A model generated the notes under the pieces. That model was not told where the DNA came from. It saw nothing but the letters and a program-made list of their open reading frames with translations, and ran no database searches. This document shows positions 11,837 to 56,180 of a stretch of 64,000 nucleotides of DNA, one piece after another. The stretch is from NCBI GenBank assembly GCA_963711105.1, contig CAVQCV010000003.1:39051-103050 (forward strand). The letters are read 5' to 3'. The DNA comes from an uncultured Chloroflexia bacterium. GTDB taxonomy: Bacteria > Chloroflexota > Limnocylindria > Limnocylindrales > CSP1-4. The position numbers and the translations under genes are program-made. Each line of letters begins with the position of its first letter. Within the stretch, counting starts at the first letter, position 1.

Positions 11837-12739
11837 TCAGTTCATGTTGAAGGTCTCGAAGAAGTGCTGGGGGTACATGGTGGCGCCGGGCTTGGCCATG
11901 ACTATGAGCATGTAGAAGCGCTGGTCGGCGACCCAGTACCTGGCGTATCCGTCCAGCGACATTTCCGTGAACTTGATCTCACGCGCCGGGCACGACTTGA
12001 AGGTCAAGTAGCGGGAGCCACTGATCTTGCCCCCGACAGCCGTGATGCCCTGATCGATGCTCTCGAGCAACGCGTTCGTGTCGCCATTCAATGCAGAGCT
12101 GGGCAGATCCATGGCGGCAGCCTCATAGACCGTTCCGCCGTCCAGCGACATGTACATCTTCAGGTTCAGGGACCCGTAGATCGTGTCCATCGACTGGCTC
12201 ATGGTCTGCGGGTCGCCGGATCCGGGGAACATGACGCTCCACGATCCATCCGGGCTGGTGAACTGATTCCACGAGCTCCGCGGCGATGCCTCGGCATCCG
12301 GCTGCCAGCTGTCCGCGCGGTTGAGCAGCAGGTACCCACCCACGACGGCAATTACCGCTACCAGGGCAAGGCCGACGAGGATCGGCAACTTGGATCGACG
12401 CGCGGGGGTCTGGACCCACGCCGGGCTCAGGTCGAGCCCGCAGTTCGCGCAGATTCGGTAGCCGGGGTACAGGGGCGCACCGCAACGCCAGCAATTGGTT
12501 GGCATGGCGCCCGGCGCGGGCGCCTGCGGAGCTGCGGGCATGCCCCACTGCGGCTCGCCCTGCGGAGCTGCGGGCATGCCCCACTGCGGCTCGCCCCGCG
12601 GAGCTGCGGGCATGCCCCACTGCGGCTCGCCCTGCGGCGCGGCCGGGGCCGGAAGCGGCGTCAGTTCAGACCCACAATTCCTGCAAGTCGACTCGTCGCC
12701 GGCGCGCGGTGTTCCGCACTTCGGGCACTGGCTGAGCAT
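11837..12739 (-). CDS. Membrane protein with two zinc-ribbon motifs and a 12-aa tandem repeat
   Basis: CPKCGT..CRNCG and CWRCG..CANCG zinc ribbons. Three copies of GEPQWGMPAAP(R/Q), then a TM helix (ILVGLALVAVIAVVGGYLLL) and an extracytoplasmic domain. Confidence 0.65.
   Translation of the reverse strand: MLSQCPKCGTPRAGDESTCRNCGSELTPLPAPAAPQGEPQWGMPAAPRGEPQWGMPAAPQGEPQWGMPAAPQAPAPGAMPTNCWRCGAPLYPGYRICANCGLDLSPAWVQTPARRSKLPILVGLALVAVIAVVGGYLLLNRADSWQPDAEASPRSSWNQFTSPDGSWSVMFPGSGDPQTMSQSMDTIYGSLNLKMYMSLDGGTVYEAAAMDLPSSALNGDTNALLESIDQGITAVGGKISGSRYLTFKSCPAREIKFTEMSLDGYARYWVADQRFYMLIVMAKPGATMYPQHFFETFNMN
12524..12640. repeat. 36-bp tandem repeat x3 (plus a partial copy) inside the zinc-ribbon gene
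   Basis: Unit ctgcggagctgcgggcatgccccactgcggctcgcc is repeated head-to-tail. It encodes the GEPQWGMPAAP repeats on the minus strand. Confidence 0.85.
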
Positions 12740-13687: not shown

Positions 13688-14260
13688 GTGACCGCAACAG
13701 CAGACACCTACCCGGCCAGGCTGGCCGTCGACTATCCAGGTCAGCTGAGCCGGCTGACGACGTTCTTTCGACCGATCCTGATGATCCCGATCGGGATCGT
13801 CCTGGGCGCGCTGTCCTGCAGCATTGCCTTCGCGACCGGGCTGATGATCTTGTTCCGGCGGCGCTATCCGCGCTGGTGGTTCGACTTCTCCCGGGAACTG
13901 GCTCGCTTCGGTCTCCGCGTTGGGGCCTACGGTCTCCTGCTCACCGACATCTACCCGTCCACCGAGGACGAACAGTCGGTGCATGCCGAGATTGACTATC
14001 CGAACGCCCAGACCGACCTGAACCGCTGGCTGCCACTCTTCAAGTGGCTTCTGGCCATCCCGCACTACATCGCCCTCTTCTTCGTGGGCATCGTGGCGTT
14101 CTTCGCCCTCGTCGTGGCCTGGATCTCGATCCTGGTCACGGGACGCTACCCACTCGCGATCTTTGACTTCATCGTCGGGGTGATGCGCTGGGGCCTGCGG
14201 GTCAACGCCTACGTTGCCCTGCTGGTGACGGATCGCTACCCGCCGTTCAGCCTGGCCTGA
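13688..14260 (+). CDS. DUF4389-like membrane protein
   Basis: Duplicated motif RYPRWWFDFSRELARFGLRVGAYGLLLTDIYP / RYPLAIFDFIVGVMRWGLRVNAYVALLVTDRYP. GTG start at 13688. Confidence 0.65.
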   Translation: MTATADTYPARLAVDYPGQLSRLTTFFRPILMIPIGIVLGALSCSIAFATGLMILFRRRYPRWWFDFSRELARFGLRVGAYGLLLTDIYPSTEDEQSVHAEIDYPNAQTDLNRWLPLFKWLLAIPHYIALFFVGIVAFFALVVAWISILVTGRYPLAIFDFIVGVMRWGLRVNAYVALLVTDRYPPFSLA

Positions 14261-14287: not shown

Positions 14288-14330
14288 GAGGCGAGGCCAC
14301 GTTGCGGCCTCGCCTCCTCCCGCGTTTTCG
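14288..14330 (+). terminator. Rho-independent terminator candidate after the DUF4389 gene
   Basis: Perfect 11-bp stem gaggcgaggcc / ggcctcgcctc (14288-14298 and 14306-14316), followed by ctcccgcgttttcgg. Confidence 0.5.
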
Positions 14331-14605
14331 GCGGGGCGTTGCGGGTGGTGCGCCCGCGCGGATACAAAGGCTAAGTACGACGGTCCGCCCGCAAGTACCC
14401 CTCGCGGTCCCCGACCAATGGCGGTACATTCCCCTCGGAGGTATGCGGGCCATGTGGCTGTTGTTTGCCGCGCCGCGGGCATCCAGCCCCGACGCGGAGG
14501 CTGTCCAGGACGGCGTTGACACCGTTTCGGGTGCCCGCCATCGTCGGTCGGTTGGCGCCATTGCCAAACGGCGAGACGAACGCGCTTTTGCGATGAGGTT
14601 GAGCC

Positions 14606-16507
14606 GTGAGCCTCCTCAAGCGCATCGAGCGCGCCCAGCAAGCCAATCAGCAGTCGCAGGGGGTTGCGACCCCGTATAGGCCGCCGCTTCCGGGGCAGGC
14701 GCCACCCACCGGCGGCCCGCCTGCCGCGCCGCCGTCTCCAGCCGCGCCGACCCAGGCGCCCCCAGCCGTTGGGGCGCGCCAGACCCTCGGAGCGGCTTCT
14801 CACGGTATGGTCTCGAACCGCGAGGACTATCTGAACAACGTCCGCCGGCGGTTGCTCGACCAGGTAATCGGCGCCCAATCGTTGACCACGGGCGAGGACT
14901 CGGCCGTTCGAGGCGGCGTTGAAGGCATAGTCGACCGCGTCCTCGAGACGAATGGCTTCGTGATCCGGCGCGATGAGCGACAGCGCCTGATCGACGACGT
15001 GATGTCGGAGATCCAGGGCTTCGGGCCGATCGAGCTGCTCCTCAACGACGAGACCATCACCGAGGTCATGGTCAACGGCCCCAACCAGGTCTACATCGAG
15101 CGCAAGGGCAAGCTCATCCTCACCAACGTCGTGTTCCGGGATGAAGAGCACGTGATGCATATCATCGACCGCATCATTGCCCCGCTCGGCCGGCGCATCG
15201 ACGAGTCCAGCCCGCGAGTGGACGCCCGTCTCCCCGACGGCTCGCGCGTCAACGCGATCATCGCGCCGCTGTCGCTCATCGGCCCGGTCATCACCATCCG
15301 CAAGTTCTCCACCAAGCCGTATACGGTCGAGGACCTCGTCCGGTTCGGGACTTCGACGGCCGAGATGTTCCAATTCCTGAAGGCCTGCGTCGAGGCTCGA
15401 CTCAACATCTTCGTATCCGGCGGCACCGGTTCGGGCAAGACAACGTTCCTCAACGTGCTGTCGTCGTTCATCCCCAACGACGAGCGGATCGTGACAATCG
15501 AAGACGCGGCCGAATTGCAGCTCCGTCAGGAGCATCTCATCACCCTCGAGTCGCGGCCGGCGAACCTCGAAGGCGAGGGCGAAATCACCATCCGCAACCT
15601 CTTGCGCAACGCCCTCCACATGCGCCCGGACCGCATCATCGTCGGCGAGTGCCGCGGCGGCGAGACGCTGGACATGCTCCAGGCCATGAACTCCGGCCAC
15701 GACGGTTCGCTGTCCACCGGCCATGCGAATGGCCCGCGCGACATGCTCGCCCGCCTCGAGACGATGGTGCTCATGGCCGGCTACGAGATGCCGCTGCGGT
15801 CCATCCGCGAGCAGATCACTTCAGCCGTGGACCTCATCGTCCATACCGCCCGCCTGAAGGACGGTTCCCGCAAGGTCGTCGACATCACCGAGGTCTACGG
15901 GATCGAGGACGACGAGATCCTGACCCAGGACATCTTCTCGTTCGAGCAGACGGGTCTCGTCGAAGGCAAGGTCCAGGGCGACCTCAAGCCGATGGGCATC
16001 CGACCGACATTCATGCGCAAGTTCAAGGAATACGGCATCGCGCTGCCGCCGGACGAATACGGCATCCCGCCCGAGGATCCGGCCAAGCCCACCCGCGCCC
16101 GGCCTGAGAAGGCAAGGTTCGCGGGTGGCGAGGGGGCTGCCCCCATCGATCCATCGCTGCTTCGCTCATCCTCCGGGAAGGCGACCAAAGCCGGCGGCAT
16201 GGTCTACGTGTCGTCCGTGGGCCCCATCGATCCGAAGACCGGGCTGCTCGCCCCCGGGGGCATCAAGGAGCAGACCCGTCAGTGCCTGGCGAACCTGGAG
16301 GCCACGCTCAGGAACGCGGGCAGCTCGCTCGACAAGATCGTCTGGGCCAACTGGTCGCTCCGCGATCCGTCTGAGTTCGATGCCTTCAACAAGGAATGGT
16401 TGAAGGTTTTCCCCATCGACACGCCCATCGGCCAGGGCACGACGATGCCACCGCTGCATCGCCGGGCCGGCTTCCGCATCTCCATCGGAGTCATTGCCCA
16501 GGAGTAG
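14606..16507 (+). CDS. CpaF/TadA-family secretion ATPase (type II/IV secretion NTPase) fused in frame to a C-terminal RidA/YjgF-like domain
   Basis: N-terminal [11 protein letters not shown] plus a Pro-rich spacer. Walker [13 protein letters not shown], Asp and His boxes ([23 protein letters not shown]). The C-terminal approximately 125 aa align to RidA: [17 protein letters not shown]...[33 protein letters not shown]...[10 protein letters not shown]. There is no stop and no in-frame ATG or GTG between the two domains. GTG start. Confidence 0.75.
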
Positions 16508-16557: not shown

Positions 16558-18957
16558 CTACCAGTCGGCGGGAGCGTCCCCGACTGCGCCGGGCGTCTGC
16601 TCCAGTGCGGCCGGTGGGTACACCGGCGCGGGGGTCGGGGCCGCGGTCGGGGGCGTGGTCGCGAGCGGAGCTCCGACCATGAGCAAACCGTCCACCTTGA
16701 CGTACCTGGAGTTCCAGGTGTCCTTGTGGATGACTTTGCCGTTGGCGTCGGTCACGGTCCGGGTGCGGGAGGTGCTGAAGCCCGCCGTCGGATACTCGGC
16801 TCGGGCCGTCTTGCCCGGCGCCAGGGACGTGGTGTAGCTCTTCTTGTCGGTGGCCTTGACGACGTTGGCCTTGAACTCGGGGCTGAGCTCGAACTTCCGA
16901 CCCGTCGGCAGGCTCCACAGCTGGATCGTGATGTGGCTGGTCCGGCCCGTGGTGGCCCAGGATCGGATGATGATCGGGTTGTCCGTGTCGTTGGTCCAGC
17001 GCATGTTGTAGGTCGTATAGCCGTTGGAGAAGACGGTCGCGTCCAGGCCGACCGGGTAACGACTGATGTAGTAGGCATGGGCGTGGCGCTCGTCGATTTG
17101 CATGCCGGCTCGCATCGCGGCGTTGAACGCCGTCGTGGATGCGGAGCAGATCCCGCCGCCCATGGCGCCGGTGTGGTCGCTCTTGCCGTTCTTGATCACG
17201 CCGCCCAGGGTGTACCCGTGGGCTCTGTCGATGGGGCCGACCGCGTTCAGGAAATTGAAGTGGCCCCGGGCCGGCACGAGCTGGCCGTTTAGGAGCGCCG
17301 CAGGGACGCGGATGTTGGCTCCGTTGCCGTTGCTGATGTCCGGATAGAAGGTCGTCGTCCACTGTCCGATGACCTTGATGCCCTGGAGGCTGTCCAGAGT
17401 GACGCTCGGCGGGACGGCCTGGGAGGCGAGTGCTACGCCCCCGGCCGGGGCGGTGCCACTGCCCCGGGCCTCGAGATAGCCGGCCAAATCCTGGGCCGAC
17501 GCGGCTGCGTCGATCGTGGTGCCGGGTTTGCCGCCCTTGAGGCCGACGGGATTGCTCTGCGAATCCCAGATGACCGAGGGCTCGACCGGTTTGGTGGCGA
17601 CGGAGGCCGCGAGCGTTGAGACGTAGGTCTCGATCATGCCCTCGTCGAGCGTCGGACCGTAGCTCCCGTCGGGGAAGCGCTGGAAGACAATCCAGGTCCG
17701 CACCGTATCCGCGTCGACGGTGAAGGTCTTGAGCGGAGCGGGGCTTTTCGAGGCGGCCGCGGTGGCGGCCAGGGTGCTGGGGGTCGGGCTGGCAGAGGCC
17801 GCAATCGCCGCAAGCTGGGCCGCGGTCGGGTCCCAGCTCAAGGTCGTTTCGACCGCCATTCGTTCAGCTTTGGCGATGGCTGCCTGCGCGTCGGCATTCG
17901 TCACGTCGGCCTGCACGGTGATCAGCGCCGCTCCGACTTCGAAGCTGGAAGTCGCGTCGGGCTGGGCGAGGCGGTCGACGATTGCCCGCTCGATGGCCGT
18001 CTCGTCGATCATTCGGCCGTCCATCGCCGGCGAAACGCTGAACACGCCGCCGAGATTCGTGACGGCGGCATTCGCGGGATAGATCCGGGTCGAATCGAAG
18101 AGGGCTCGGACCTTGAGGGCGACGGCCTCGGGATCGACGCCGACGGACAGCGGGACGTCATACCTGTTGATCGCGGCCCGGCCGATGTTGACAGCGTCGT
18201 CGAGGGCGTTGCCGGTGTGGCCGACGGCCATGGCTTGATCGGCCATGAACGCGGCGTCGGGCACGCGACCGGCGTCGGCAAACGAAATCGTGGCCGTGCC
18301 GGTGGGCGTGGCGATGGTTACTGTGCCCTGGCCTACATAGGCGTAGTCGGCCTCGATCCGGGCCACGAGCTGGTCGCGGGTCAGGCCCGAGGCGTCCAGA
18401 GAGCCGACATGAACCCCAGGGGCAGTCTTGTCCGAGTAGGCACTGTCGACGACGAGGATGACTGCCACGAAGATGGCCAGGCATGCAGCCACGCCGAGGC
18501 CGAAGGCAATCAGCAGCCAGCCTGCGGCGCGGACGCGGCTGTGGCTCCTGGGCAGGGCGGGATCGACGGCCGAGGCCCGGCCGCGGTGGCGTCGGAGCGG
18601 CAGCGACGGGCGCGGAAACCGCGGCAGCGACAGCGAGTGGGGGAGATGCGGGCGGTGACGCAAGGAAGTACCGCGGGCACCCTCAACGGCTTCGGCGGCT
18701 TCGGCGGCTTCGGCGGCTTCGGCGGCTTCGGCGGCTTCGGCGGCTTCGGCGGCTTCGGCGGCTTCGGCGGCTCCGGGGACCACGGCCTCCGACGCGGCCG
18801 GTTCTTCGCTCGTCGAGGCGGGTGGGCTGCCGGTGGTTTTGGCGCCGGACCCCGCCAGTTCCGGCGCGTCCATGCCCCATGACTCCCGCCAGACCTTCTC
18901 TCCGCCGAACATCTGGTCTACCAGATCGATTTCTTCCCTCGACATCCCGCCGCTCAC
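16558..18957 (-). CDS. VanW-family protein with a cytoplasmic (AAE)n repeat tail and a single TM anchor
   Basis: VanW-domain motif GGGICSASTTAFNAAMRAGMQIDERHAHAYYISRYPVGLDATV. TM segment WLLIAFGLGVAACLAIFVAVILVV. The N-terminus has AEAAEAAEAAEA.... The precise start is uncertain. Confidence 0.7.
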   Translation of the reverse strand: MSGGMSREEIDLVDQMFGGEKVWRESWGMDAPELAGSGAKTTGSPPASTSEEPAASEAVVPGAAEAAEAAEAAEAAEAAEAAEAAEAAEAVEGARGTSLRHRPHLPHSLSLPRFPRPSLPLRRHRGRASAVDPALPRSHSRVRAAGWLLIAFGLGVAACLAIFVAVILVVDSAYSDKTAPGVHVGSLDASGLTRDQLVARIEADYAYVGQGTVTIATPTGTATISFADAGRVPDAAFMADQAMAVGHTGNALDDAVNIGRAAINRYDVPLSVGVDPEAVALKVRALFDSTRIYPANAAVTNLGGVFSVSPAMDGRMIDETAIERAIVDRLAQPDATSSFEVGAALITVQADVTNADAQAAIAKAERMAVETTLSWDPTAAQLAAIAASASPTPSTLAATAAASKSPAPLKTFTVDADTVRTWIVFQRFPDGSYGPTLDEGMIETYVSTLAASVATKPVEPSVIWDSQSNPVGLKGGKPGTTIDAAASAQDLAGYLEARGSGTAPAGGVALASQAVPPSVTLDSLQGIKVIGQWTTTFYPDISNGNGANIRVPAALLNGQLVPARGHFNFLNAVGPIDRAHGYTLGGVIKNGKSDHTGAMGGGICSASTTAFNAAMRAGMQIDERHAHAYYISRYPVGLDATVFSNGYTTYNMRWTNDTDNPIIIRSWATTGRTSHITIQLWSLPTGRKFELSPEFKANVVKATDKKSYTTSLAPGKTARAEYPTAGFSTSRTRTVTDANGKVIHKDTWNSRYVKVDGLLMVGAPLATTPPTAAPTPAPVYPPAALEQTPGAVGDAPADW
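18690..18761. repeat. 9-bp tandem repeat (cttcggcgg) x8 inside the VanW-family gene
   Basis: Perfect head-to-tail copies. Encodes (AAE)n on the minus strand. Confidence 0.9.
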
Positions 18958-25917: not shown

Positions 25918-27705
25918 TCAAGACTGCGCAGGCCCGTCCGTCTTGGCGGCCGGCTCGGATTCGGCTGCGGTTGCGTCCGGCGCGGGCGCACCGCTCGGCG
26001 GCTGAGGCCAACCCTGCGGCGGCTGCACGGCCGGCGGCGGCTGCACGGCCGGCGGCCAGTTGCCCGGCTGTCCGGGCTGCCCGGGCATCGGAGGCCACGG
26101 CTGGCCAGGGTAGCCGGGGTAGCCGGGGTAGCCGGGGTAGGGCATTCCGGGCCAGGTCGGCGGCACCGGAGGAGTGGCATCGCCGCGCAGCGTCCAGAGG
26201 TGAGTGGCCACCAGGCCGCCGGCCACCAGGACGAATGCGAGCGGTGCCGCGATGTCCGCGCCGAAGTCCGCGATCTGCAGGCCGAAGATGCGCCGCAGGA
26301 TGGGCAGGAGCAGCATCGCCGCCGCGACGGCCAGGATCACCATCGCGCCCCCGGACACCAGGTAGAAGTACCAGCCCCGGGACGATGAGCTCGTCTCGTC
26401 GGCCCACGAGGTGTGGCGCCGCGAGCGAGCCGGGATCCAGGCCCAGATCCATAGCCCCAGCCCGACCAGGGCTACGGCGATGCCGCTCACGACTGTGACC
26501 TTCCACATGGACCCCATCAAGCCCGACTGGGGCCCGTAGTCGTAGTTGGACGACTTGGACAGAACCTGGCCCAGGATGGTGGCCAGCGCTTCGACAAGGC
26601 CGAGCGCCAGAGCGCCGACGCCGACGAGAGCTGCGATGTAGCCGGAGACACGCCACGGGGAGACGCCGGCCGGCCCGACCGGGGCTTCGGAGAAGGCGCG
26701 ACGGCGCGCCCACCAGAGGGCCACGAGCCATGGGGCGGCAGTCAGGACCGGAGCGAGCACCTCGTACCAGACGGAGAACGTGTCTCCGGTGCGCAGGTCG
26801 AAGGCCCATAGGAGCAAGGTGCTCAGTGAGGTGGAGAACTGGGTCGCCAGCGTCAACGCCGCGTCCAGGACGATCAGCATGAAGAATGCCGCGCGGACGC
26901 GAGATGCGCGCTCGTTCTGGGCCTGTTCGCCGTCGCCGGACCTGAGGCGGTTGGAATAGATCCAGTACCCCAGCAGAATCGGGACCCAGATCGCCATGGC
27001 CGCCAGGGTCGCCAGCAGCTCACCGAGGTACTGAGACCCGCCGATCGAGGTTGTCAGGCCGATGAGGACGTAGTTGCCGTACGCGCCCACGGAGCCGGCG
27101 ATCTGCTCGACGGCGTACCAGGCGGTGAGGTACAGAGCGATGCGGGACACCCAGGCGGCCGCGCCGCGGATCGCCGGGCCGCGGCGGACATCCCGGTCTC
27201 GGGCCCAGGCGTGGAGGGCCCAGGCGAGTGCGAGTGGGAGGATGACGGCCAGCGCGGTGGCGTCGTCGAGGGAGGCGAACGGGTTGATCGAGAAGATCAA
27301 GCCGAAATCACCCGTCGCCGGCTCGGTCAGGCCGCGGACCACTCTGGCCAGGTTCGCGGCGGCGAGAAGGCCGGCTGCGACGATGCTGAAGTAGAGCCAC
27401 AGGGCGAGATAGACGGACCGGATGACCGAGCGCCGCTCCGCAACGGCTGGATCGGATTCGCCGCGGACCATCCGCTCGACGAACAGCCAGTGCGTTGCCC
27501 AGAGCGCCAGTCCGACGACGCCGATGGCCATCGCCATGGCCAGCGTCTCTTTGTCGGCGGTCGAAACGGACGCGGATGGGAACGGGTGCGGCCCGACTCC
27601 GAGCTTGACCAGCAGCAGGCGGAGCATGTCCCCGCCGCCGAAGAGCAGCATGGCCAGGCCGACGGCCGAAACCAGGTAAAGGTACAGGCGCTTTGCTGTC
27701 GCCAT
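25918..27705 (-). CDS. Polytopic membrane protein, paralog A (12 TM built from four 3-TM modules, Pro/Gly/Tyr-rich C-terminal tail)
   Basis: MATAKRLYLYLVSA... Recurring R-x-x-Y-L-Y / HW..VERMVRG / ERRSVIRSVYLALWLY / ERASRVRAAFFMLIV / SSSRGWYFYLVSG modules. Tail PGMPYPGYPGYPGYPGQPWPPMPGQPGQPGNWPP. Confidence 0.65.
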   Translation of the reverse strand: MATAKRLYLYLVSAVGLAMLLFGGGDMLRLLLVKLGVGPHPFPSASVSTADKETLAMAMAIGVVGLALWATHWLFVERMVRGESDPAVAERRSVIRSVYLALWLYFSIVAAGLLAAANLARVVRGLTEPATGDFGLIFSINPFASLDDATALAVILPLALAWALHAWARDRDVRRGPAIRGAAAWVSRIALYLTAWYAVEQIAGSVGAYGNYVLIGLTTSIGGSQYLGELLATLAAMAIWVPILLGYWIYSNRLRSGDGEQAQNERASRVRAAFFMLIVLDAALTLATQFSTSLSTLLLWAFDLRTGDTFSVWYEVLAPVLTAAPWLVALWWARRRAFSEAPVGPAGVSPWRVSGYIAALVGVGALALGLVEALATILGQVLSKSSNYDYGPQSGLMGSMWKVTVVSGIAVALVGLGLWIWAWIPARSRRHTSWADETSSSSRGWYFYLVSGGAMVILAVAAAMLLLPILRRIFGLQIADFGADIAAPLAFVLVAGGLVATHLWTLRGDATPPVPPTWPGMPYPGYPGYPGYPGQPWPPMPGQPGQPGNWPPAVQPPPAVQPPQGWPQPPSGAPAPDATAAESEPAAKTDGPAQS

Positions 27706-28514: not shown

Positions 28515-30338
28515 CTACGGTTTGGCGCGGGGCGTCCGCTTCCGCGCGGGCTTCGCGGTTGCGGCCTTCGCGGTTGCGGCCTTCGCGGTCGCCGGTTTCT
28601 CCGCTGCCGGTTCTTCCGCAGCCGGCTTCTCAGCAGCTGGTTTCGCTGCATCAGGCTTCGCACTTGTTCTGCCTCGACCGCCGGCCGCCGACGTGGCGAC
28701 CGGAGCGGCCGGGTTTCGCATGGGCAGCACGAGCGCCTGCCCTTCCGGCGTGGCGGCGTCGCGCCTGTAGATCCAACTGTGGTACAGGAGCAGCGCGCCG
28801 GCCACGACCAGCAGGCCGATCGCGATCCCCGCAATGCTCGCCACGGGCGCCGGCTTGGGTCCCGTGATGGCCTCCGTGTACTGCCAGACGAACACGGCCA
28901 GACCGGCCGTGAAAGCCACGGCCGACGCGCCCAGGATCGCGTACAGGTAGTACATCCGCGACCACGCGGTGACATCGGTGGCCCGGTTGGCCGCCATCCT
29001 TACTTCGGCCTGGCGCCACATGTAGTACCAGACCGCGCCGCCAACCACGATGGCGCCGATGCCAAAGGCGACCGGAAGCTTCCACAGGTCGGCCGGGACC
29101 TTGGAGAAGATCTGGACGATGGCCGAGTCGATGACCTTGAACGCGCCCTGCGACGCGGCCGCGAGGCCGGCCAGAGCCGTCACGTAGAGCACTATGCGCG
29201 TCGCCGACAGACCGACTGGACCGGTCGGCTCCTCGTCCATGGCGACCTTCCGATGCCACCACCAGGCCGCGCCCGCGGGGATGGCCATGATCGGCAGGAC
29301 GAGAACCAGGTACCAGGTGGGCTCGGTGTTCTTCACGTCCGTGAAGGACGCGACGACCTGGCCCGCGCCGAAACCGACGTTCTCGATAACGACGCGCACG
29401 CCCCACAGGACGACCACGGCCAGGAAGGCCAGGCGAACCTTGGAGATTCGCTCCGCCTCGCCCTGCGGCGTCTTCGCGTCGCGCAGTCGGAGCGAGTACA
29501 GCCAGTGGCCATACCACGCTGCCCCGAACGCCAGCGCCGTAACCGCGGCTTCGGTGAACGGCCGGACCCAATCGGCGCCCGTGGGAACCTTGGCTGCCGC
29601 GAGCGGGGCGTGCCGGCTAAAATCGGTGGCATCCATGCCGGCGACCGACTGAACCGCGGCCCACTGGACGGCGAAGATCTCGACGATGCTCGAGACTGCC
29701 ATCAGGGCCACGACGAGCCCTACCAGGGCGGCGCCGTAGAGGTAGAAGCGGGACAGCCAGGCTGCGGCTCCGGAAATGAGATCGGTCTCGCGGAGGTCGC
29801 GGTCTCGGATCCAGACGTGGTAGACGAACATCGCCGTCGCCGCCACTCCGATGGCGAGGGTCCCGGAGTCGCCCGCGAAGGGATTCACTTGAGCTAGCAG
29901 GGCGGCGACCATCGCCGCCTGATCTCCGGCCCCTTCGCCCGGCACGGCCGGGGCTTGGGCTCGGTCGGCGACGATCTTCGCAATCAGGGTGGTCCAGGCC
30001 CACAACGCGATCGGCAGTGAAGCGCCGAGGGCCCAAACGAAGTACAGCGAGCGGACGATGGAGCGCCGCTCTCCCGCGGCCTCGTCGCTCGATCCGCGGA
30101 CCATCCTCTCCACGATGGCCCAATGGAAGACCCAGACGATCAGGCCGGCCACGAGCAGGCCAAAGCCTATGCTGAAGAACAATCGGTCGATGTCGGTGGA
30201 CTGGGCGGCCGTCGGGAACTGATTACCGACGTGCAGGTTGTTGACCAGGACCTGGAACAGGATCGTCGCGCCCAGCAGCCCGATGACGAGGCTGGCGGCC
30301 GACACTCCGTAGAGATACAAATGCTTGGCTGTCGCCAT
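28515..30338 (-). CDS. Polytopic membrane protein, paralog B (same four 3-TM module architecture as 25918..27705)
   Basis: MATAKHLYLYGVSA..., VFHWAIVERMVRGSSDEAAGERRSIVRSLYFVWAL, ERISKVRLAFLAVVVL: a clear paralog of the downstream gene. C-terminal Ala/Lys/Pro-rich tail (AAEKPAAEEPAAEKPATAKAATAKAATAKPARK). Confidence 0.65.
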   Translation of the reverse strand: MATAKHLYLYGVSAASLVIGLLGATILFQVLVNNLHVGNQFPTAAQSTDIDRLFFSIGFGLLVAGLIVWVFHWAIVERMVRGSSDEAAGERRSIVRSLYFVWALGASLPIALWAWTTLIAKIVADRAQAPAVPGEGAGDQAAMVAALLAQVNPFAGDSGTLAIGVAATAMFVYHVWIRDRDLRETDLISGAAAWLSRFYLYGAALVGLVVALMAVSSIVEIFAVQWAAVQSVAGMDATDFSRHAPLAAAKVPTGADWVRPFTEAAVTALAFGAAWYGHWLYSLRLRDAKTPQGEAERISKVRLAFLAVVVLWGVRVVIENVGFGAGQVVASFTDVKNTEPTWYLVLVLPIMAIPAGAAWWWHRKVAMDEEPTGPVGLSATRIVLYVTALAGLAAASQGAFKVIDSAIVQIFSKVPADLWKLPVAFGIGAIVVGGAVWYYMWRQAEVRMAANRATDVTAWSRMYYLYAILGASAVAFTAGLAVFVWQYTEAITGPKPAPVASIAGIAIGLLVVAGALLLYHSWIYRRDAATPEGQALVLPMRNPAAPVATSAAGGRGRTSAKPDAAKPAAEKPAAEEPAAEKPATAKAATAKAATAKPARKRTPRAKP

Positions 30339-36135: not shown

Positions 36136-38118
36136 CTACGGGGCCGGCGTCACCGAAGGCTCGGCGGCTGCGGGCGACGCGGGTGCGGGCGCGACGGTCG
36201 GTTCGGGCGGGGCGCCGCACGGGTAGTACTGGTGCAGCAGCGACGAGGTGCAGGCCTCGTACGAGTAGTCGTTCGGGCCCTGCTGTCCCGGTCCAAAGAA
36301 CGGGAACGCGGCCAGGATCGCGAAGACCAGGTATACGACCAGGAGCTTGAGCGGGCTGACGCGTCGCAGCAGCCACCACGTCATGACGACCAGGCCGAGA
36401 GCGAGCGCGCCGGGGAAGATCGGGTCCAGGACCGAGGCCTGGATGTTGAGCCTGGCGCCCGCGATGTCGACGGTCGGCGCGAGATAGACGGTCACGAACT
36501 TGGCGGCGAGCGCGCCCAGGACCATGTTGCCCAGGACGCCCGCCCCGACCAGGACGCGGTCGATGGTGCCGGAGCGGAGGATGTCCGTGACCAGGGAGCG
36601 GCCGCGCCGGTAGCCCTGCATCCAGGCCGTGTAGCCGATGGCCACGATCACGATCGCCACGAGAACGGTGTAGATGATGGGGCCGAGTAGATTGCCTGTG
36701 CCGCTGAGGGTCGGAACGGCGGTGCCCGTGGCGCTGCCGCCGGCGATGCCGATGCCCAGGGCCAGCAGGATCGGCGTGATCGTGCTCTGGCTCAGGGTGT
36801 CGCCGATGCCGGCCAGCGGGCCCATCAGCCCCGACTTCACGGAGTTGATGGCGTCGTCGTCGATCGGGGCGCCGTTGGCCCGCTCCTCCTCCATGGCGAT
36901 GACGGTGCCGTGGACGATGTTGCCGAAGTTCGGCTCCGTGTTGAAGAAGACCAGGTGACGCTTGAGTGCGGACCGGATTTCGTCTTCGGTCTTGTAGAGG
37001 CGCTTGATGATCGGCGTCATGGCGTGGGCGAAGCCGGTGCCCTGCAGCCGCTCGTAGTTGTAGTTGGCGTGAGCGAAGAACGTCCACAGCGCCCAGGACT
37101 TGACCAGGTCGCCGCGGGTCAGGCGCGAGGCGGGCGCTGGCGTCTCGGGCGACGCGGGTGCGGGCCGGGCCTGGGCCGGCACCTCCTCGGCGGCTTCGGC
37201 GCCTCGGGCCGTCATGGCCGTCGAACCGGAGAAGCTCAGATGCAGGTAGGCCAGCGCGAGCCCCAGGGCGGCGACGACGACCAGGGAGATGGAGCCCGCG
37301 GAGATCGTCATCAGGATGAAGCCGATGAAGAAGTAGGGGACCACCGCGCCCCGGAAGATGAAGCGCATGTTCAGCGCGATGCCGATGGCGGGCAGGATGC
37401 CGCCGGCGATGATCAGCCCGTTGACGACCCACTGGGGCAGCTGGTTGAGTGCGTCCTGGACGTACTGCGGCCCGTTGTAGGCGAACAGGAAGACGGGCAC
37501 GAAGCTGGCGACGAACAGGAAGACCTGGCCGGGCAGCCAGTTCATCAGGGCGACGCCGGAGATGTCCGCCTTCTCGGCTCGCGCGTCCGCCCAGTGGGCG
37601 AAGACGGCGTCGACCGACATGCGGCTGTAGAAGATGATCGTCCCCAGGAGGCCGAGACCGAAGGCGATCGGGATTGCCTGAGCGGGACTCATGTGGCCGG
37701 CCAGCGCGACCGTCGTTCCGACCCAACCGGCGAACCCGGCGTCGGCGGGCAGACTGCCGCCGGCGCTGATGAAGCCCAGGTACGGGACGTTGATCGCCGC
37801 CCCGATGAGCGTGCCCTGGGCCGGGTCGCCCAGGATGCAGCCGACCAGGAACCCGGCGACGAGCGGCCGGTAGAGGGTGAAGTAAGCCAGGCCGAACAGC
37901 CAGGGCGAATTGGCCAGGTAGTAGCCGATCGCGATCAGGGCCGCCTGGAAAGCGGAAACGGAGATCGTGGGCCCGGCCGCGGTTGGGGCGATTGCGATGG
38001 CCGACGTGGCGCCGGCGCCACTGGCGGCGAACGCCGTGGCGGGCATGACGGCCGCGATCGTCGCGAGCCCCGCGAACAGCAGCGCGCCGCCTGCGACCGC
38101 CGCGAACCTCCTGAGCAT
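36136..38118 (-). CDS. PTS mannose/fructose/sorbose-family fused IIC-IID component
   Basis: The N-terminal half is an IIC-like polytopic domain. The C-terminal half carries an IID signature: LTRGDLVKSWALWTFFAHANYNYERLQGTGFAHAMTPIIKRLY...RHLVFFNTEPNFG...LMGPLAGIGDTL. Confidence 0.75.
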   Translation of the reverse strand: MLRRFAAVAGGALLFAGLATIAAVMPATAFAASGAGATSAIAIAPTAAGPTISVSAFQAALIAIGYYLANSPWLFGLAYFTLYRPLVAGFLVGCILGDPAQGTLIGAAINVPYLGFISAGGSLPADAGFAGWVGTTVALAGHMSPAQAIPIAFGLGLLGTIIFYSRMSVDAVFAHWADARAEKADISGVALMNWLPGQVFLFVASFVPVFLFAYNGPQYVQDALNQLPQWVVNGLIIAGGILPAIGIALNMRFIFRGAVVPYFFIGFILMTISAGSISLVVVAALGLALAYLHLSFSGSTAMTARGAEAAEEVPAQARPAPASPETPAPASRLTRGDLVKSWALWTFFAHANYNYERLQGTGFAHAMTPIIKRLYKTEDEIRSALKRHLVFFNTEPNFGNIVHGTVIAMEEERANGAPIDDDAINSVKSGLMGPLAGIGDTLSQSTITPILLALGIGIAGGSATGTAVPTLSGTGNLLGPIIYTVLVAIVIVAIGYTAWMQGYRRGRSLVTDILRSGTIDRVLVGAGVLGNMVLGALAAKFVTVYLAPTVDIAGARLNIQASVLDPIFPGALALGLVVMTWWLLRRVSPLKLLVVYLVFAILAAFPFFGPGQQGPNDYSYEACTSSLLHQYYPCGAPPEPTVAPAPASPAAAEPSVTPAP

Positions 38119-38181
38119 CTGGTCTCCTCCACCTGTGTGCGGCCGGCCGCGACGGGCGCGGTTGGCCGCGTTGCGTGCGGT

Positions 38182-38661
38182 CTAGCCGCGATCCAACGAG
38201 CGAAGCGGGATCGGCCGGTCGTCGGCCACGATCTGGATCTGGACCATCGTCCCGAGCCGCTCCAGTTCGTGCAGCTCACCCAGTTCCTCGGGGCTGATCG
38301 AGATCGTTTTGTGGAGTCGCTTGCGGCCGGGGCCCGCGCCCATGCCGCCCACGTCGACTACTTCCATCGGGACGCCGGCGTGGCGAAGCGCAAGCACGGT
38401 GCCGGGTTTGCGGGCCAGGACCATGACCGGCTCCGGGGTAGCGGCCAGTTCGATGAGCCGGACCGCGCCCTCGGCCACGTTCAGCACTTCCACCGGAACG
38501 CCGGGGGGAGCGGCCATGACCAGCACGTCGCGCAGGAACTCGTCCCGGGCCGTCGCGTCGTCCACGATCACGATCCGGTCCGCGCCCAGGGCGCGCAGCC
38601 ACACGGCCACGACCTGACCGTGGATCAGCCGATCGTCGATGCGAATCAGTCGCAGGCTCAT
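38182..38661 (-). CDS. PTS mannose-family IIB component
   Basis: MSLRLIRIDDRLIHGQVVAVW, the phospho-His motif of EIIB-Man. Confidence 0.75.
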   Translation of the reverse strand: MSLRLIRIDDRLIHGQVVAVWLRALGADRIVIVDDATARDEFLRDVLVMAAPPGVPVEVLNVAEGAVRLIELAATPEPVMVLARKPGTVLALRHAGVPMEVVDVGGMGAGPGRKRLHKTISISPEELGELHELERLGTMVQIQIVADDRPIPLRSLDRG

Positions 38662-38698
38662 GCGTCCAGCCGCGTTGCCAATGCCGGTACCGCCGCCG

Positions 38699-39106
38699 TC
38701 AGGAGGCGCGGCGAGCGCGGTGGCGCTCCGTTTCGACGATGCCGGAGCGGCCCACTTCGAGCAGCCGCTCGACGAAGGCGTCGTCGAGATCGCCGTCCGC
38801 CAGCGCGGCCTCGACGACCATCGGCAGATTCACGCCGGCCGCGCAGACCACGCGCGCGGAACGGCCCGCGATGGCCGCGCAAACGTTGTAGGGCGTGCCG
38901 CCGAGCAGGTCCGCCAGAACCAGGACGCATTTGTCGTCGTGGCCGATCGCCGCCCGCAGCCCCTCGGCGTAGTGGTCCGGTGTGTCGGCGGGCTGGAGGC
39001 CAACGGCCGCGATGTCGGCAATCGAGCCGCAGATCAACTCCGCCGTGGACAACAGCGCCGACGGCAGGGCCCCATGACCTGCGATTACGATCCGAAACGT
39101 GCGCAC
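38699..39106 (-). CDS. PTS mannose-family IIA component
   Basis: FRIVIAGHGALPSALLSTAELICG...VLVLADLLGGTPYN (EIIA-Man). The start is probably the GTG at 39106 with GGAGAA 4 nt upstream. The longer track ORF would add a Gly/Arg-rich leader. Confidence 0.65.
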   Translation of the reverse strand: MRTFRIVIAGHGALPSALLSTAELICGSIADIAAVGLQPADTPDHYAEGLRAAIGHDDKCVLVLADLLGGTPYNVCAAIAGRSARVVCAAGVNLPMVVEAALADGDLDDAFVERLLEVGRSGIVETERHRARRAS

Positions 39107-39267
39107 TGGTTCTCCAGAGGCTCCTTCGCCTGGGCTTGTCTCTCGGTCGCTTGTCTCTCGGCCACCGGCGTCGCGACCGCCGCTATTTCTGCCTGCAACT
39201 ATTATCACGCAACTACTTGCAGTGGTAGTATTGCCAGTATAGTCGGGGCCATGGTTCGGACTGTCAA

Positions 39268-40350
39268 GTGGAGGCCGTGCGGTTGAGCAGCTCGCAATCC
39301 GATCGACCGCCCGTCGAGGCGCCGCCGGCTCGAGGTTCAGCCGACGTCCCGGCGGCCGACGTCCCGGCGGCCGAAGTCCCGGCGGCCGAGAGTTCGACTG
39401 TCAGCCAGCGCGAGATGATGAGGCTTGTCGCCGAGCTGTACTACGTGCGCGGCCTGGGCCAGCCGGAGATCGCGACGCTCACCGGTTTCTCCGTTTCGAA
39501 GGTGTCGCGCCTGCTCGCCGCCGCCAGAACGTCCGGCATCGTCCGGATTTCGGTCGAGGGCACGCCGGTTGAACCGACCCCTATCGAACAGGCCCTCTCG
39601 GCCGCCCTGGGCGTCGAAGTCTGGATCACGCCCGGCCAGGATTCGACTCCGGCCGTCGCTGCCCGGTTGTGCGGCGTCGCCGCCGCGCCACGACTTGCGG
39701 ACGAGCTGCCGGAAGACGGGGCCATCGGCCTGACCGGTGGCTACACCGTGGAGTCGCTCGTGGCCGCCATGCCGGCCGTGGCCCGGCCGCGCGCCGTCGT
39801 CGTACCGCTCGTCGGGGGCTGGGACTCGAGCAACCCGCACCTGAACAGCAACGAGATCGCCCGCCGTATGGCCGAGCGCATGGGTGCCCAGGTCCGCCTG
39901 CTCCACGCCCCGGGCCTGCTCGACGACGAAGCCACGACCGCGGCGCTGCTGGCCGATTCCGCCGTCACCGCCACGACCCGCTTCTGGGGCGAGTTGCGGC
40001 TGGCCCTCGTGGGCATGAGCGGCGCGCCGCGGTACGTCCCCGGCTACGGCACCGTGATGGACCGATTGGACACCGCCGGGCGCGAGCGGCTGACGGCCCG
40101 AGGCGCGGTGGGCGACGTGGCCGGCCACCTGGTCCGCATCGACGGCTCGTTCCTCGCCGACGAGTGGGAGCGCCGCACGATTTCCATCCCGGTCGAGACG
40201 CTGCGCCGTGCCGGGCGTGTCGTGGGCATCGCCGCCGGCTCGAACAAGGTGGAGACGATCATCGCCGGCGCGCGCACGGGCCTGCTCCACCTGCTGATTA
40301 CGGACGAGACCACGGCCGCGGCGGCGCTGGCGCTGCTGGGCAAGGGTTAG
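39268..40350 (+). CDS. SorC/DeoR-type sugar-binding transcriptional regulator
   Basis: HTH LYYVRGLGQPEIATLTGFSVSKVSRLL followed by a SorC sugar-binding domain. Divergent from the PTS operon. The N-terminal approximately 45 aa Ala/Val/Pro-rich extension may not be translated. Confidence 0.75.
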   Translation: MEAVRLSSSQSDRPPVEAPPARGSADVPAADVPAAEVPAAESSTVSQREMMRLVAELYYVRGLGQPEIATLTGFSVSKVSRLLAAARTSGIVRISVEGTPVEPTPIEQALSAALGVEVWITPGQDSTPAVAARLCGVAAAPRLADELPEDGAIGLTGGYTVESLVAAMPAVARPRAVVVPLVGGWDSSNPHLNSNEIARRMAERMGAQVRLLHAPGLLDDEATTAALLADSAVTATTRFWGELRLALVGMSGAPRYVPGYGTVMDRLDTAGRERLTARGAVGDVAGHLVRIDGSFLADEWERRTISIPVETLRRAGRVVGIAAGSNKVETIIAGARTGLLHLLITDETTAAAALALLGKG

Positions 40351-41730: not shown

Positions 41731-42564
41731 ATGAGAGTCTCCGAACTCGCAAGTCGGGCCGGCATTGCCCCTTCCGCCGTTCGTTTCTATGAGGAGAGGG
41801 GCGTGCTGCCGGCCGCCGATCGGCGCGACAACGGATACCGGGAATACGGCGAGGATGCGCTCGCCAGGCTCAGGCTCGTCGTCACACTGCGGCGGCTCGG
41901 CCTTTCGCCGGTCGATGCCGGCAGGATGGCCCGGCTCTGCCTGGAGCACGGCGAGATCGACAGGGACCTCGCGCCGGTCGTTGCCGGCCAGCGGGTCGCG
42001 ATCGCCCGCCAGAGGGCCGATCTGGACCGGCTCGACTCTGAACTAACAGACCTCGAAATCACAATCCAGGCCGCCGGGCGTGCCCGGCGCCGCAAGGAGG
42101 GCAGCGCCATGTCTCCCGATCCCATCCGCGTCCTGTTCGTCTGCACTGGCAACTCCGCCCGGAGCCAGATCGCCGAGGCCCTGCTGCGCGACTTCGGCGG
42201 GGGCGACTTCGCCGCCTTCTCGGCCGGGACCGAGCCCAAGGGCGTGAACCCGTACACGGTCCGCGTCCTCGAGGAGATCGGCATCGACTGGTCGGCCGCC
42301 CGATCGAAGTCCGCGACGGAGTTCCTTGGCCAGCCGCTCGACTACGTGGTAACCGTCTGCGACCGAGCCCGCCAGAGCTGTCCAGTCTTCCCCGGCGAGC
42401 ACAACACGCTCCACTGGGGTCTCGAAGACCCGGCCGAGGTGGAAGGCGACGACGCGGCCAGGCTGGAGGCTTTCCGGCGCACCAGGACGGAGATCGCAGT
42501 GCGGCTTCGGCCGTTCGTCGAGCTGGCTCGAAAGGCCCGGAAGGAAGCGGCAACTCCGGCCTGA
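41731..42564 (+). CDS. MerR-family HTH regulator fused in frame to an LMW-PTP-type arsenate reductase (ArsC)
   Basis: N-terminus MRVSELASRAGIAPSAVRFYEERGVL (MerR HTH plus coiled-coil). C-terminus IRVLFVCTGNSARSQIAEALL...YVVTVCD (CX5R P-loop of thioredoxin-coupled ArsC). There is an internal ATG at 42109 after AGGAGGG. No stop separates the two halves. Confidence 0.7.
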   Translation: MRVSELASRAGIAPSAVRFYEERGVLPAADRRDNGYREYGEDALARLRLVVTLRRLGLSPVDAGRMARLCLEHGEIDRDLAPVVAGQRVAIARQRADLDRLDSELTDLEITIQAAGRARRRKEGSAMSPDPIRVLFVCTGNSARSQIAEALLRDFGGGDFAAFSAGTEPKGVNPYTVRVLEEIGIDWSAARSKSATEFLGQPLDYVVTVCDRARQSCPVFPGEHNTLHWGLEDPAEVEGDDAARLEAFRRTRTEIAVRLRPFVELARKARKEAATPA

Positions 42565-54782: not shown

Positions 54783-56180
54783 GTGAAGCCCTCAGACGCA
54801 GCGGCAGAGCGCAGCGCCGACCCGGCGTCTCCCGAATCCAGCCCTCACCCCGCCCGAGCAGATGATCTCTGGGAGGTCTTCCTCTCGCGAGAGAACCTGG
54901 CCCGGGCGTTGCGGCGCGTCGAGGCCAATCGCGGCGCTCCGGGTCCCGACGGCATGAGCACGGCTGAGCTTCGGCCGTATCTCAAGACCGCCTGGCCCAG
55001 TCTCCGCGAATCACTCGACGCTGGCACATACCGACCCAGCCCAGCCAGACGGGTGACGATCCCCAAGCCCGGTGGCGGTGAGCGTGAGTTAGGCGTGCCG
55101 ACGGTGATCGACCGCTTTCTCCAGCAAGCGTTGAGCCAGGTTCTCTCTCCGGTCTTCGAACCAACGTTCTCGGATCGAAGCTTCGGCTTCCGACCCGGAC
55201 GGAGCGCTCACCAGGCGGTGGAAGCCGCACGGCGGGCAATCGAGGCCGGGCAGGGCTGGGTCGTCGATGTCGATCTGGACCGGTTCTTCGACCGGGTCCA
55301 GCATGATGCCCTCATGGCCCGCGTGGCCAGAAGGGTCGGCGACCGACGGATCTTGAAGCTGATCCGCCGTTACCTCGACGCAGATGTCATGGTCGGCGGC
55401 GTGAAGGTCGCGACAGAAGAGGGCACCCCGCAAGGGTCTCCGCTCTCACCGCTGCTCGCGAACGTCATGCTCGACGATCTCGATCACGAGCTGGAAAGAC
55501 GGGGCCATGCCTTCGTCCGTTATGCCGACGACCTCCGGGTCTACGTGGCAAGCGAGCGAGCGGCTCAACGGGTGCTCGAAGGCATCACGGTCTTCGTGGA
55601 GCGGCGGCTCCATCTCAAAGTGAACCCGGCCAAGAGTGGCGTATCCCCGGCGACCGTCCGGGGTCTGCTCGGCTTCGGCTTCTTTGGGCGCGACGGGCGG
55701 ATCAGAGTCAGGCTCGGACCAAAGACGAAGACTCGTCTGCGGGCCCGATTACGCGAACTCACCGACCGCCACCGCTCGATTGCCATGCCGATCAGGATCG
55801 CGCAGCTCAACCGGTTCATCGCAGGCTGGACCGCCTACTTCGCCCTGGCCGAGACGCCCTCGGTGTTCGAGGAGTTCGACGAGTGGCTCCGTCGCAGATT
55901 GCGGCAGGTGCGCTGGAAGGAGTGGAAGACTTGTGGCGCCAAGCGCCGCAACCTGCGATCGCTCGGCATCCCTGACGATCTGGCTCGCCAGTGGGCGGCC
56001 AGCCGGAAGGGCTACTGGCGGCTGGCGGCCTCCCCTCCGCTCAGTTGGGCCATGCCGATCAGCTACTGGACCGACCTTGGTCTTCTGCCGATCGGTGTTC
56101 GTGTCCGTCGTCTCCGGGAGCACTGGCGAACCGCCGGATGCGGACCCGCATGTCCGGTGGTGTGGGAGGGGCCGGGTTGA
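54783..56180 (+). CDS. Group II intron-type reverse transcriptase/maturase (RT domains 0-7 plus X/maturase, no En/HNH domain)
   Basis: IPKPGGGERELGVPTVIDRFLQQA, FGFRPGRSAHQAV, WVVDVDLDRFFDRVQHDALM, GTPQGSPLSPLLANVMLDDLD, FVRYADDLRVY (YADD), maturase RFIAGWTAYF...WLRRRLRQVRWKEWK. GTG start in the track; the true start is uncertain. Confidence 0.85.
   Translation: MKPSDAAAERSADPASPESSPHPARADDLWEVFLSRENLARALRRVEANRGAPGPDGMSTAELRPYLKTAWPSLRESLDAGTYRPSPARRVTIPKPGGGERELGVPTVIDRFLQQALSQVLSPVFEPTFSDRSFGFRPGRSAHQAVEAARRAIEAGQGWVVDVDLDRFFDRVQHDALMARVARRVGDRRILKLIRRYLDADVMVGGVKVATEEGTPQGSPLSPLLANVMLDDLDHELERRGHAFVRYADDLRVYVASERAAQRVLEGITVFVERRLHLKVNPAKSGVSPATVRGLLGFGFFGRDGRIRVRLGPKTKTRLRARLRELTDRHRSIAMPIRIAQLNRFIAGWTAYFALAETPSVFEEFDEWLRRRLRQVRWKEWKTCGAKRRNLRSLGIPDDLARQWAASRKGYWRLAASPPLSWAMPISYWTDLGLLPIGVRVRRLREHWRTAGCGPACPVVWEGPG

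Follow-up and report, generated by a model that had tools for sequence, protein, structure and literature searches.

A CpaF/TadA-family ATPase carrying a C-terminal Rid-like domain without catalytic residues in an uncultured Chloroflexota lineage

Why should the ATPase of a pilus or secretion motor carry, on its C terminus, a domain from a family of metabolite repair proteins, and is such an arrangement real? The question is raised by a gene in a 64,000-nucleotide stretch of contig CAVQCV010000003.1 from an uncultured Chloroflexia bacterium (assembly GCA_963711105.1; the whole stretch is referred to below as the window), which encodes a CpaF/TadA-family ATPase followed in the same reading frame by a domain with the RidA/YjgF fold. 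Domain accretion is common on secretion ATPases. In Tad pili a single ATPase serves both extension and retraction, and the choice of direction is an open question. We find that the CpaF-Rid fusion is genuine and lineage-wide and that it is encoded outside any recognizable tad operon. We hypothesize, with about even confidence, that the Rid-like domain is a nonenzymatic regulatory or organizing module on a Tad-type motor. A full-text search of the literature returned no paper that pairs CpaF/T2SSE with RidA/L-PSP in this sense or that treats the pili of Limnocylindria, which agrees with the original prediction, made from the sequence of the window, that the fusion was not known to be described. 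Public records label these proteins just "CpaF family protein."

Both parts of the fusion were recognized by Pfam in one polypeptide of 633 amino acids, T2SSE (PF00437) at residues 137 to 416 (E = 3e-63) and Ribonuc_L-PSP (PF01042) at residues 526 to 607 (E = 3e-14, 53.4 bits versus a cutoff of 27.3). NCBIfam also recognized both parts, with every model below its own curated cutoff; the best of these was TIGR03819, a conjugal-transfer-associated TadA, at 327 versus 373 bits. On the fused domain, TIGR00004, a model for Rid proteins, scored 51 versus 106 bits. The junction (residues 481 to 531) contains no stop, Met, or Val codon. The original prediction of a complete ATPase with all of its boxes, joined in frame to a RidA/YjgF-fold domain across a junction without a stop or an in-frame start, was thus borne out. 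The GTG start of the gene (Table 1) is supported by the GAGG located 7 nt upstream and by the conserved N terminus of the homologs: the window protein begins with MSLLKRIE, which fits the family consensus MSLLxRxE, and M1, L3, L4, and R6 are nearly invariant.

The distribution of the fusion was assessed at the levels of proteins, genomes, and loci. When 5.8 billion clustered proteins were searched, PF00437 and PF01042 occurred together in 118 of the 120 best matches listed; these 118 were 63 to 95% identical to the window protein and 517 to 708 amino acids long. The contig index had no exact copy of the window protein on record. The only non-Rid proteins among the 120 were P0003 and P0057, which were rejected as orthologs because they consist of two CpaFs in tandem and belong to a diderm tad locus. 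A scan of the Genome Taxonomy Database (GTDB), with one genome per species and an alignment of the C-terminal region alone as the query, recovered relatives of this family-specific region in 335 species genomes. The best 80 of the 335 are metagenome-assembled genomes (MAGs), 77 of which are labeled Chloroflexi, Chloroflexota, Chloroflexia, Anaerolineaceae, or Candidatus Limnocylindria/Limnocylindrales; an explicit Limnocylindria or Limnocylindrales label is carried by 17 of these best 80. The fusion is found throughout an uncultured soil and freshwater lineage of Chloroflexota that is at least largely the class Limnocylindria, and the gene is apparently present in a single copy per genome.

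At the nucleotide level, 86 homologous loci were fetched with 10 kb on each side of the gene (1.43 Mb including the window). A single open reading frame (ORF) spans the ATPase and the Rid-like domain in 78 of them. Four of the remaining eight are cut by contig ends, and the other four (L014, L033, L068, and L074) are frameshifted, near the junction in L014 and L068 and within the ATPase in L033 and L074. All four come from "MFD" MAGs, which we take to be long-read assemblies, and we suspect indel errors, with real pseudogenes as an alternative. The expectation that related genomes would carry the same fusion, rather than two genes separated by a stop at the junction, was confirmed by these counts, and the ORF of the window is free of stops through the junction. 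Selection was measured as the median dN/dS (ratio of nonsynonymous to synonymous substitution rates) of 40 close pairs by the Nei-Gojobori method. The ATPase core (0.085) and the Rid-like domain (0.108) had lower values than the linker (0.275) and the N-terminal part (residues 1 to 136; 0.37), and pairwise identity was 0.83 for the ATPase versus 0.73 for the Rid-like domain and 0.40 for the N-terminal segment. Both the ATPase and the Rid-like domain are under strong purifying selection.

Sequence, structure, and functional motifs all place the ATPase in the CpaF/TadA family of the PilT/VirB11-like superfamily. Its Walker A motif, Asp box, Walker B motif, and His box are invariant in 65 aligned homologs, and phmmer aligned it to Caulobacter crescentus CpaF (9e24) with an E value of 1.4e-120 and 46 to 47% identity over about 410 residues. 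The full-length AlphaFold 2 (AF2) model had a predicted local distance difference test (pLDDT) score of 74.6 and a predicted template modeling (pTM) score of 0.53. The top four Foldseek matches were CpaF structures, including 8rjf, 9e24, and 8rkd, with 44 to 47% identity and template modeling scores of 0.74 to 0.81 normalized to the target; archaeal GspE and FlaI followed at 26 to 29% identity. Among characterized ATPases, its nearest counterpart in both sequence and structure is CpaF rather than PilB, PilT, GspE, VirB11, or FlaI. Like the C. crescentus CpaF (8rjf and 9e24), which is a Tad/Flp/type IVc motor, the fusion protein is built from an N-terminal helix, a disordered segment, N1, N2, and a C-terminal domain, in that order, and it carries the catalytic boxes together with the platform-contact motifs of both ring faces. 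Unlike CpaF, it has approximately 150 additional C-terminal residues, made up of the linker and the Rid-like domain, whereas in the Caulobacter protein only 12 residues follow the C-terminal motif that the two have in common. The fusion protein is also encoded alone, outside a tad operon.

The contact motifs bear on whether the ATPase could still work with a membrane platform. Hinge and platform-contact residues of C. crescentus CpaF, namely, G147/G149, D208, and E331-G334, have been mutated as such (PMC11300603). In the alignment, G147/G149 correspond to G138/G140, D208 corresponds to D199, and E331/G332/G334 correspond to E322/G323/G325, and all of these are invariant in the family; the exception within the central loop is the position of Caulobacter Ser333, which is Glu324 in the fusion protein. 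Three motif regions of CpaF have been described as needed for retraction and as degenerate in "single-orientation" CpaFs (Whitfield et al. 2026, preprint, 10.64898/2026.02.24.707734). P386/R387 of the retraction face correspond to P377, which is conserved in 118 of 119 sequences, and R378, which is Arg or Lys in 101 of the 119. The beta13-beta14 turn is nearly invariant, as 7 of the 11 positions do not vary among the 119 sequences, and the C-terminal CpaF motif (residues 437 to 480) is conserved. The motifs reported to contact the platform are retained on both ring faces, and the protein can therefore be argued to still engage a TadB/TadC-type platform. The most likely role of the ATPase is still to drive a Tad-like platform, whose genes would lie elsewhere in the genome.

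A different modification of CpaF was seen in the two non-Rid proteins from the protein search. P0057 (937 amino acids, L087:10001-12814) and P0003 (919 amino acids) each contain two complete CpaF modules in tandem in one polypeptide, with the halves each 50 to 61% identical to the ATPase of the window. The P0057 gene of L087 belongs to a canonical diderm tad locus and is followed there by another, separate CpaF gene, which is the third CpaF of the locus. If CpaF is joined covalently into dimers, the hexamer would be restricted to three of them.

The linker that joins the ATPase to the Rid-like domain is conserved in length and in part in sequence. The stretch from residue 480 to residue 525 is held to 40 to 46 residues across the family, P481, G486, I487, P488, and K502 are invariant, and P495 and R504 are nearly so; the linker is more than a simple tether. 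A sequence search of the PDB with the fused domain returned many Rid/YjgF proteins (best E value, 2e-13), and a separate model of the domain (pLDDT 81) matched solved Rid structures in Foldseek with a root mean square deviation of 1.4 to 2.3 Å over about 110 columns. As in other members of the Rid family (PF01042), the fold is of the alpha/beta chorismate-mutase-like type, and the block NEEW.KWFP is shared with stand-alone relatives. The original prediction had about 125 residues aligning to RidA along their whole length; the domain instead comprises about 113 residues (521 to 633), aligns to RidA positions ~18 to 126 only, and lacks strand beta1. Strands beta2 to beta6 are its most conserved parts, which is compatible with trimerization. 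W580 and W583 (two Trp residues on beta4), N595, Q610, T612, R620, G622, and F623 are invariant, and G609 and R619 are each present in 118 of 119 sequences. The domain thus has an invariant surface motif of its own, composed of W-x-x-W, GQ-T, and RRAGF. R619 is the first residue of an Arg-Arg pair and falls within a 2-residue insertion relative to the stand-alone Rid proteins.

The residues on which Rid chemistry depends have been lost. The position of Arg105 (numbering of Escherichia coli and Salmonella enterica RidA) is occupied by Gly in 118 of 119 family members. In the HMMER alignment to Thermus thermophilus TTHA0137, the arginine of "PAR" stands opposite G609. The domain was also aligned by MAFFT with E. 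coli YjgF, whose sequence as used for numbering is identical to that of 1qu9, and with the nearest stand-alone relatives. This alignment gave Gly for Arg105, Ser626 for Glu120, Gly for Cys107, and Ser for Gly31; the segment from beta1 to Tyr17 is absent, and no Tyr is found at the aligned position. Those nearest relatives (P0161, P0164, P0171, and others) are about 126 amino acids long, are 40 to 48% identical to the fused domain, keep the motifs YSQAV and PPARQG, and are annotated in IMG as 2-iminobutanoate/2-iminopropanoate deaminase. Since the relatives keep both the Arg and the Tyr, the loss of catalytic residues is specific to the fused copy. The fused domain thus differs from stand-alone Rid proteins in being part of a larger polypeptide, in lacking beta1, Tyr17, Arg105 (Gly), and Glu120 (Ser), and in having the 2-residue insertion with the Arg-Arg pair and the two Trp residues on beta4.

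Replacement of Arg105 by Ala almost abolishes imine hydrolysis by RidA (Niehaus et al. 2015, PMC4433059). In the same survey, the Rid4 to Rid7 subfamilies, which lack the Arg, keep Glu120 and Tyr or Phe at position 17, with Trp replacing the Arg in Rid4 and Rid7 and variable residues in Rid5 and Rid6 (PMC4433059). With Gly at position 105, Ser at position 120, and neither Tyr nor Phe at position 17, the fused domain therefore fits none of the described subfamilies (Rid1 to Rid7). Because Arg105, Tyr17, Glu120, and strand beta1 are lost, enamine or imine deamination by the fused domain is very unlikely, and the coupling of enamine deamination to the motor that was implied by the original prediction finds no support. 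A PF01042 match in these proteins should accordingly not be read as RidA activity. Covalent fusions of Rid domains have been described before, as 3x-RidA and other multi-Rid proteins, but those are Rid-Rid tandems, and the survey mentions no fusion to an ATPase or a secretion system (Niehaus et al. 2015, PMC4433059). Many three-domain Rid proteins were also present among the matches to the Rid-like domain.

Stand-alone copies with fusion-type motifs were unconvincing: P0128 resembles a frameshift fragment, and P0135 (132 amino acids) lies on a contig of 523 nt. P0135 is apparently a free Rid protein. Motifs of the fusion type (VWANWSL, GQGTLMPP, and QRRAGF) are confined to its C-terminal half, whereas the N-terminal half resembles an ordinary YjgF; the protein could represent a free form that is rare or an assembly chimera. 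A role in defense was considered and rejected, as the sole PADLOC match was weak (34 bits, E = 5e-9) and the neighboring genes gave none. In that match, residues 528 to 606 of the fusion protein align with positions 189 to 267 of the PD-T4-2_B profile, a similarity at the level of the domain only, which suggests that the PD-T4-2_B defense protein contains a Rid-like segment.

The genomic context gives no partner for the motor. In other Chloroflexota classes, tadA lies within tad operons. Pfam searches for T2SSF, CpaE, Flp, TadE, and the A24 peptidase found none across the whole window, and tad genes were likewise not found within 10 kb of five homologs, including the one on the sister contig L006, nor were conjugation or other secretion genes; the absence of tad genes nearby had been noted in the original prediction. 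The neighbors differ at each of the five homologous loci, and only L006, which is 95% identical, is syntenic with the window. The L087 locus, which encodes P0057, served as a positive control and contained Tad, TadE, RcpC, a secretin, a CpaE-like gene, CpaF, and two T2SSF genes. When the tad components of L087 were compared by tblastn with the window and the 86 loci, only the ATPase itself and receiver domains were matched. T2SSF, Flp, TadE, and RcpC were also not found within 10 kb of the fusion gene in 82 genomes. The gene is not, in other words, encoded in a tad/flp locus together with tadB, tadC, flp, tadZ/cpaE, and a prepilin peptidase gene.

Clustering of the neighbors (1,067 ORFs from 82 nonredundant loci) gave no conserved neighbor among the 82 loci. 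The largest clusters were present in 16 loci, a response-regulator-like family that is never closer than 1.7 kb to the gene, and in 14 loci, a family resembling leucyl-tRNA synthetase. Conserved synteny was rejected, as the linkage to the DUF4389 gene of the window was found only in L006 and the upstream 190-amino-acid gene of L001 is unrelated. Upstream neighbors lie on either strand (30 on the plus strand and 41 on the minus strand), with a median spacer of 304 nt. A -10-like motif of the GGTATGCTC type (G.G.TA..CT) is loosely conserved 60 to 160 nt upstream of the gene in 39 of 72 loci, and a GGAGG-type ribosome-binding site precedes the start in the homologous loci. Because it has its own Shine-Dalgarno sequence, variable neighbors, and no conserved partner, the fusion gene is a stand-alone unit wherever it was examined. 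In the window, the 346-nt spacer upstream of the gene gave zero Rfam matches to riboswitches or other known RNAs at E values up to 1. A separate feature was seen 170 to 400 nt upstream of the fusion gene in L007, L008, L017, L027, L034, L041, L064, L075, and L086, which share the k-mers GGTGGAGCT..., TTCTGAATGCCATTC, CAGACGCTCT, and CAGCTGAGC at fixed mutual spacing; this block may be a tRNA gene or another small RNA gene of one subclade.

How might a Rid-like domain without catalytic residues act on such a motor? We propose that the motor acquired the C-terminal Rid-fold domain early in this Chloroflexota lineage. Rid proteins are trimers (PMC4433059), and by analogy the fused domain is probably trimeric as well, in which case the six copies on a hexamer would form two trimers. 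The domain would sit at the C-terminal, cytoplasmic "retraction" face of the motor, where it may either stabilize the hexamer or gate this face. Such gating might depend on whether the domain has bound a ligand or partner, and it would give a biased or regulated direction or activity of the motor. A C-terminal mCherry on Caulobacter CpaF abolishes pilus retraction, which its authors attribute to a steric block of the C-terminal face, and they propose that the ATPase ring flips over and show that retraction stops when this face is blocked (10.64898/2026.02.24.707734). A natural domain at the same terminus would therefore be well placed to gate or bias direction. Like the engineered CpaF-mCherry (10.64898/2026.02.24.707734), the fusion protein has a folded domain on the proposed retraction-engaging face. 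Unlike it, the fusion is natural, ancient, and selected, has a long and partly conserved linker of 40 to 46 amino acids, and uses a domain from a family that normally trimerizes. A stricter version, which we regard as quite unlikely, takes the Rid-like domain as the natural, selected counterpart of the mCherry block, capping the retraction face and giving either an extension-only Tad motor or, should docking depend on a ligand or partner held in the remodeled Rid pocket, one whose direction is switched by that signal.

Several points weigh against the favored explanation of a regulatory or organizing module. Neither the window nor the 10-kb flanks of the gene in the 82 genomes yielded a gene for TadB/TadC, Flp, TadZ, or a prepilin peptidase, and the partner machine is therefore hypothetical. 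The pTM score of the full-length model makes the placement of the domain unreliable, and trimerization and docking are predicted by analogy. The flexible linker could keep the domain clear of the ring, blocking nothing, and the retained motifs of the retraction face are just as compatible with free use of this face. Ring inversion was put forward in a preprint, mainly on the basis of AlphaFold 3 models (10.64898/2026.02.24.707734).

Other explanations can be weighed against the same evidence. It is possible, although unlikely, that the domain is a metabolite sensor, in which a small molecule bound in a remodeled interface pocket would switch the ATPase allosterically and couple the pilus to the metabolic state of the cell. 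This explanation overlaps the favored one, and its key step is ligand binding rather than steric capping or oligomerization. Rid pockets hold small carboxylates via Arg105 (PMC4433059), and in the fused domain the most conserved residues (W580, W583, N595, G609-Q610, T612, and R619-R620) lie on the strands and the loop that form the RidA pocket, with R619-R620 providing a new invariant Arg pair close in sequence to the lost Arg105. However, the canonical carboxylate clamp is gone, no ligand can be inferred, and no metabolic genes are consistently linked to the fusion gene at the 82 loci. An unlikely though tenable account is that the protein is not a pilus motor at all but an orphan ATPase recruited to another secretion or DNA transfer machine or to a soluble function, with the Rid-like domain as an adaptor. 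The lack of nearby tad genes in any of the 82 genomes would fit this account, given that other Chloroflexota keep tadA in tad operons, as in the canonical L087, and so would the best NCBIfam match, to the conjugal-transfer-associated TIGR03819, though its score is below the cutoff. Set against this are the conserved equivalents of the Caulobacter platform contacts (with Glu for Ser333), the 46 to 47% identity to CpaF, the apparent single copy per genome together with a very low dN/dS, which are typical of a core machine component, and the lack of conjugation or other secretion genes nearby.

An active RidA deaminase tethered to the motor would account for a PF01042 score above the gathering threshold and for the annotation of the closest stand-alone relatives. 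We consider it very improbable, since an Arg-to-Ala change almost abolishes RidA activity (PMC4433059) and here the Arg105 position is Gly in 118 of 119 sequences, Tyr17, Glu120, Gly31, and Cys107 are not conserved, beta1 is missing, and the TIGR00004 score is less than half of its cutoff. That two genes were joined by a sequencing or assembly frameshift or by a trivial recent stop loss has a negligible probability. The four split loci could be taken as a sign of such an artifact, but two of their four frameshifts lie inside the ATPase, away from the junction, and the single ORF recurs in the 78 other loci from independent assemblies and in 118 protein clusters, with invariant residues in the linker and strong purifying selection on both parts.

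Whichever role it has, a conserved folded domain at the C terminus of CpaF is a natural test case for the reversal model of the Tad motor. The fusion may exemplify a regulatory module made from a catalytically dead Rid fold. If the domain does cap the retraction face, it would represent a new form of direction control in a type IV filament motor, derived from a metabolite repair fold without its chemistry.

The flanks of the gene in the window are as first described, with a DUF4389 membrane protein gene upstream and a convergent VanW gene downstream, both identified by Pfam. The DUF4389 gene is outside the unit of the fusion gene, as, apart from the window itself, the two are linked only in the sister contig L006 (95% identical), and so is the VanW/PG_binding_4 gene, whose adjacency to the homologs is not conserved. 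The upstream terminator proposed from the sequence corresponds to a strong hairpin (z = -4.45; 0 of 200 shuffles folded as well), though a consensus terminator scan missed it. The hairpin is probably the terminator of the DUF4389 gene, and the ATPase gene would therefore form a separate transcription unit. No significant terminator structure was found 3' of the fusion gene. Close to the N terminus of the VanW protein, AEA is repeated in a run of short in-frame peptide repeats (about positions 18650 to 18750, minus strand).

Table 1. Positions in the window of the fusion gene, its parts, and its flanking features
Feature	Position	Strand	Remarks
Whole coding sequence: CpaF/TadA-family ATPase with C-terminal Rid-like domain	14606..16507	+	GTG start; 633 amino acids (aa) plus stop
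Shine-Dalgarno-like GAGG	14595..14598	+	7 nt 5' of the GTG start; GGAGG-type motifs at the equivalent site in homologous loci
Conserved N-terminal helix (aa 2-17), then Pro/Ala-rich disordered segment (aa 18-69)	14609..14812	+	AF2 helix 2-17; pLDDT <50 for 18-69
Three-helix N1 domain (aa 72-137)	14819..15016	+	AF2 helices 72-89, 98-116, and 122-137; aligns to C. crescentus CpaF
ATPase core, N2 and C-terminal domain (aa 138-480)	15017..16045	+	phmmer, Foldseek, invariant columns
Core elements: hinge G138/G140, loop-8 D199, Walker A (aa 272-280), central loop E322-G325	15419-15445 (Walker A)		
Core elements, continued: alpha11 N terminus P377/R378, beta13-beta14 turn (aa 413-423), C-terminal motif (aa 437-480)			
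Linker (aa 481-520)	16046..16165	+	Pro-rich, ~42 residues; disordered in the middle (pLDDT <50 for 497-513)
Rid/YjgF-fold domain without catalytic residues (aa 521-633)	16166..16504	+	Pfam, NCBIfam, PDB matches, model
Gly609 codon GGC, aligned with the essential Arg105 of RidA	16430..16432	+	
R619-R620 codons	16460..16465	+	Part of the family-specific HRRAGF motif
DUF4389 membrane protein, upstream neighbor	13688..14260	+	Pfam DUF4389, 7e-22
GC-rich hairpin, 11-bp stem, then U-run GUUUU	14288..14316	+	Fold -41.9 kcal/mol
VanW + PG_binding_4 gene, convergent downstream neighbor	16558..18957	-	Pfam

Several other loci of the window have unusual features of their own. An ORF with RVT_1 and GIIM (group II intron maturase) domains at 54783-56180 (plus strand) is probably part of a group II intron. 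A mannose-type phosphotransferase system operon at 36136-40350 (minus strand) encodes IIC and IID fused in one protein of 660 amino acids, plus IIB and IIA, and adjoins a divergent regulator of the Sugar-bind family. Two DUF5671 proteins of about 600 amino acids are encoded at 25918-27705 and 28515-30338 (minus strand), and the ORF of 197 amino acids between them has no Pfam match. A double zinc-ribbon protein at 11837-12739 (minus strand) contains an in-frame peptide repeat, three copies of PAAPQGEPQWGM. Finally, a MerR-type helix-turn-helix domain is fused to a low-molecular-weight phosphotyrosine phosphatase/ArsC-like (LMWPc) domain at 41731-42564 (plus strand).

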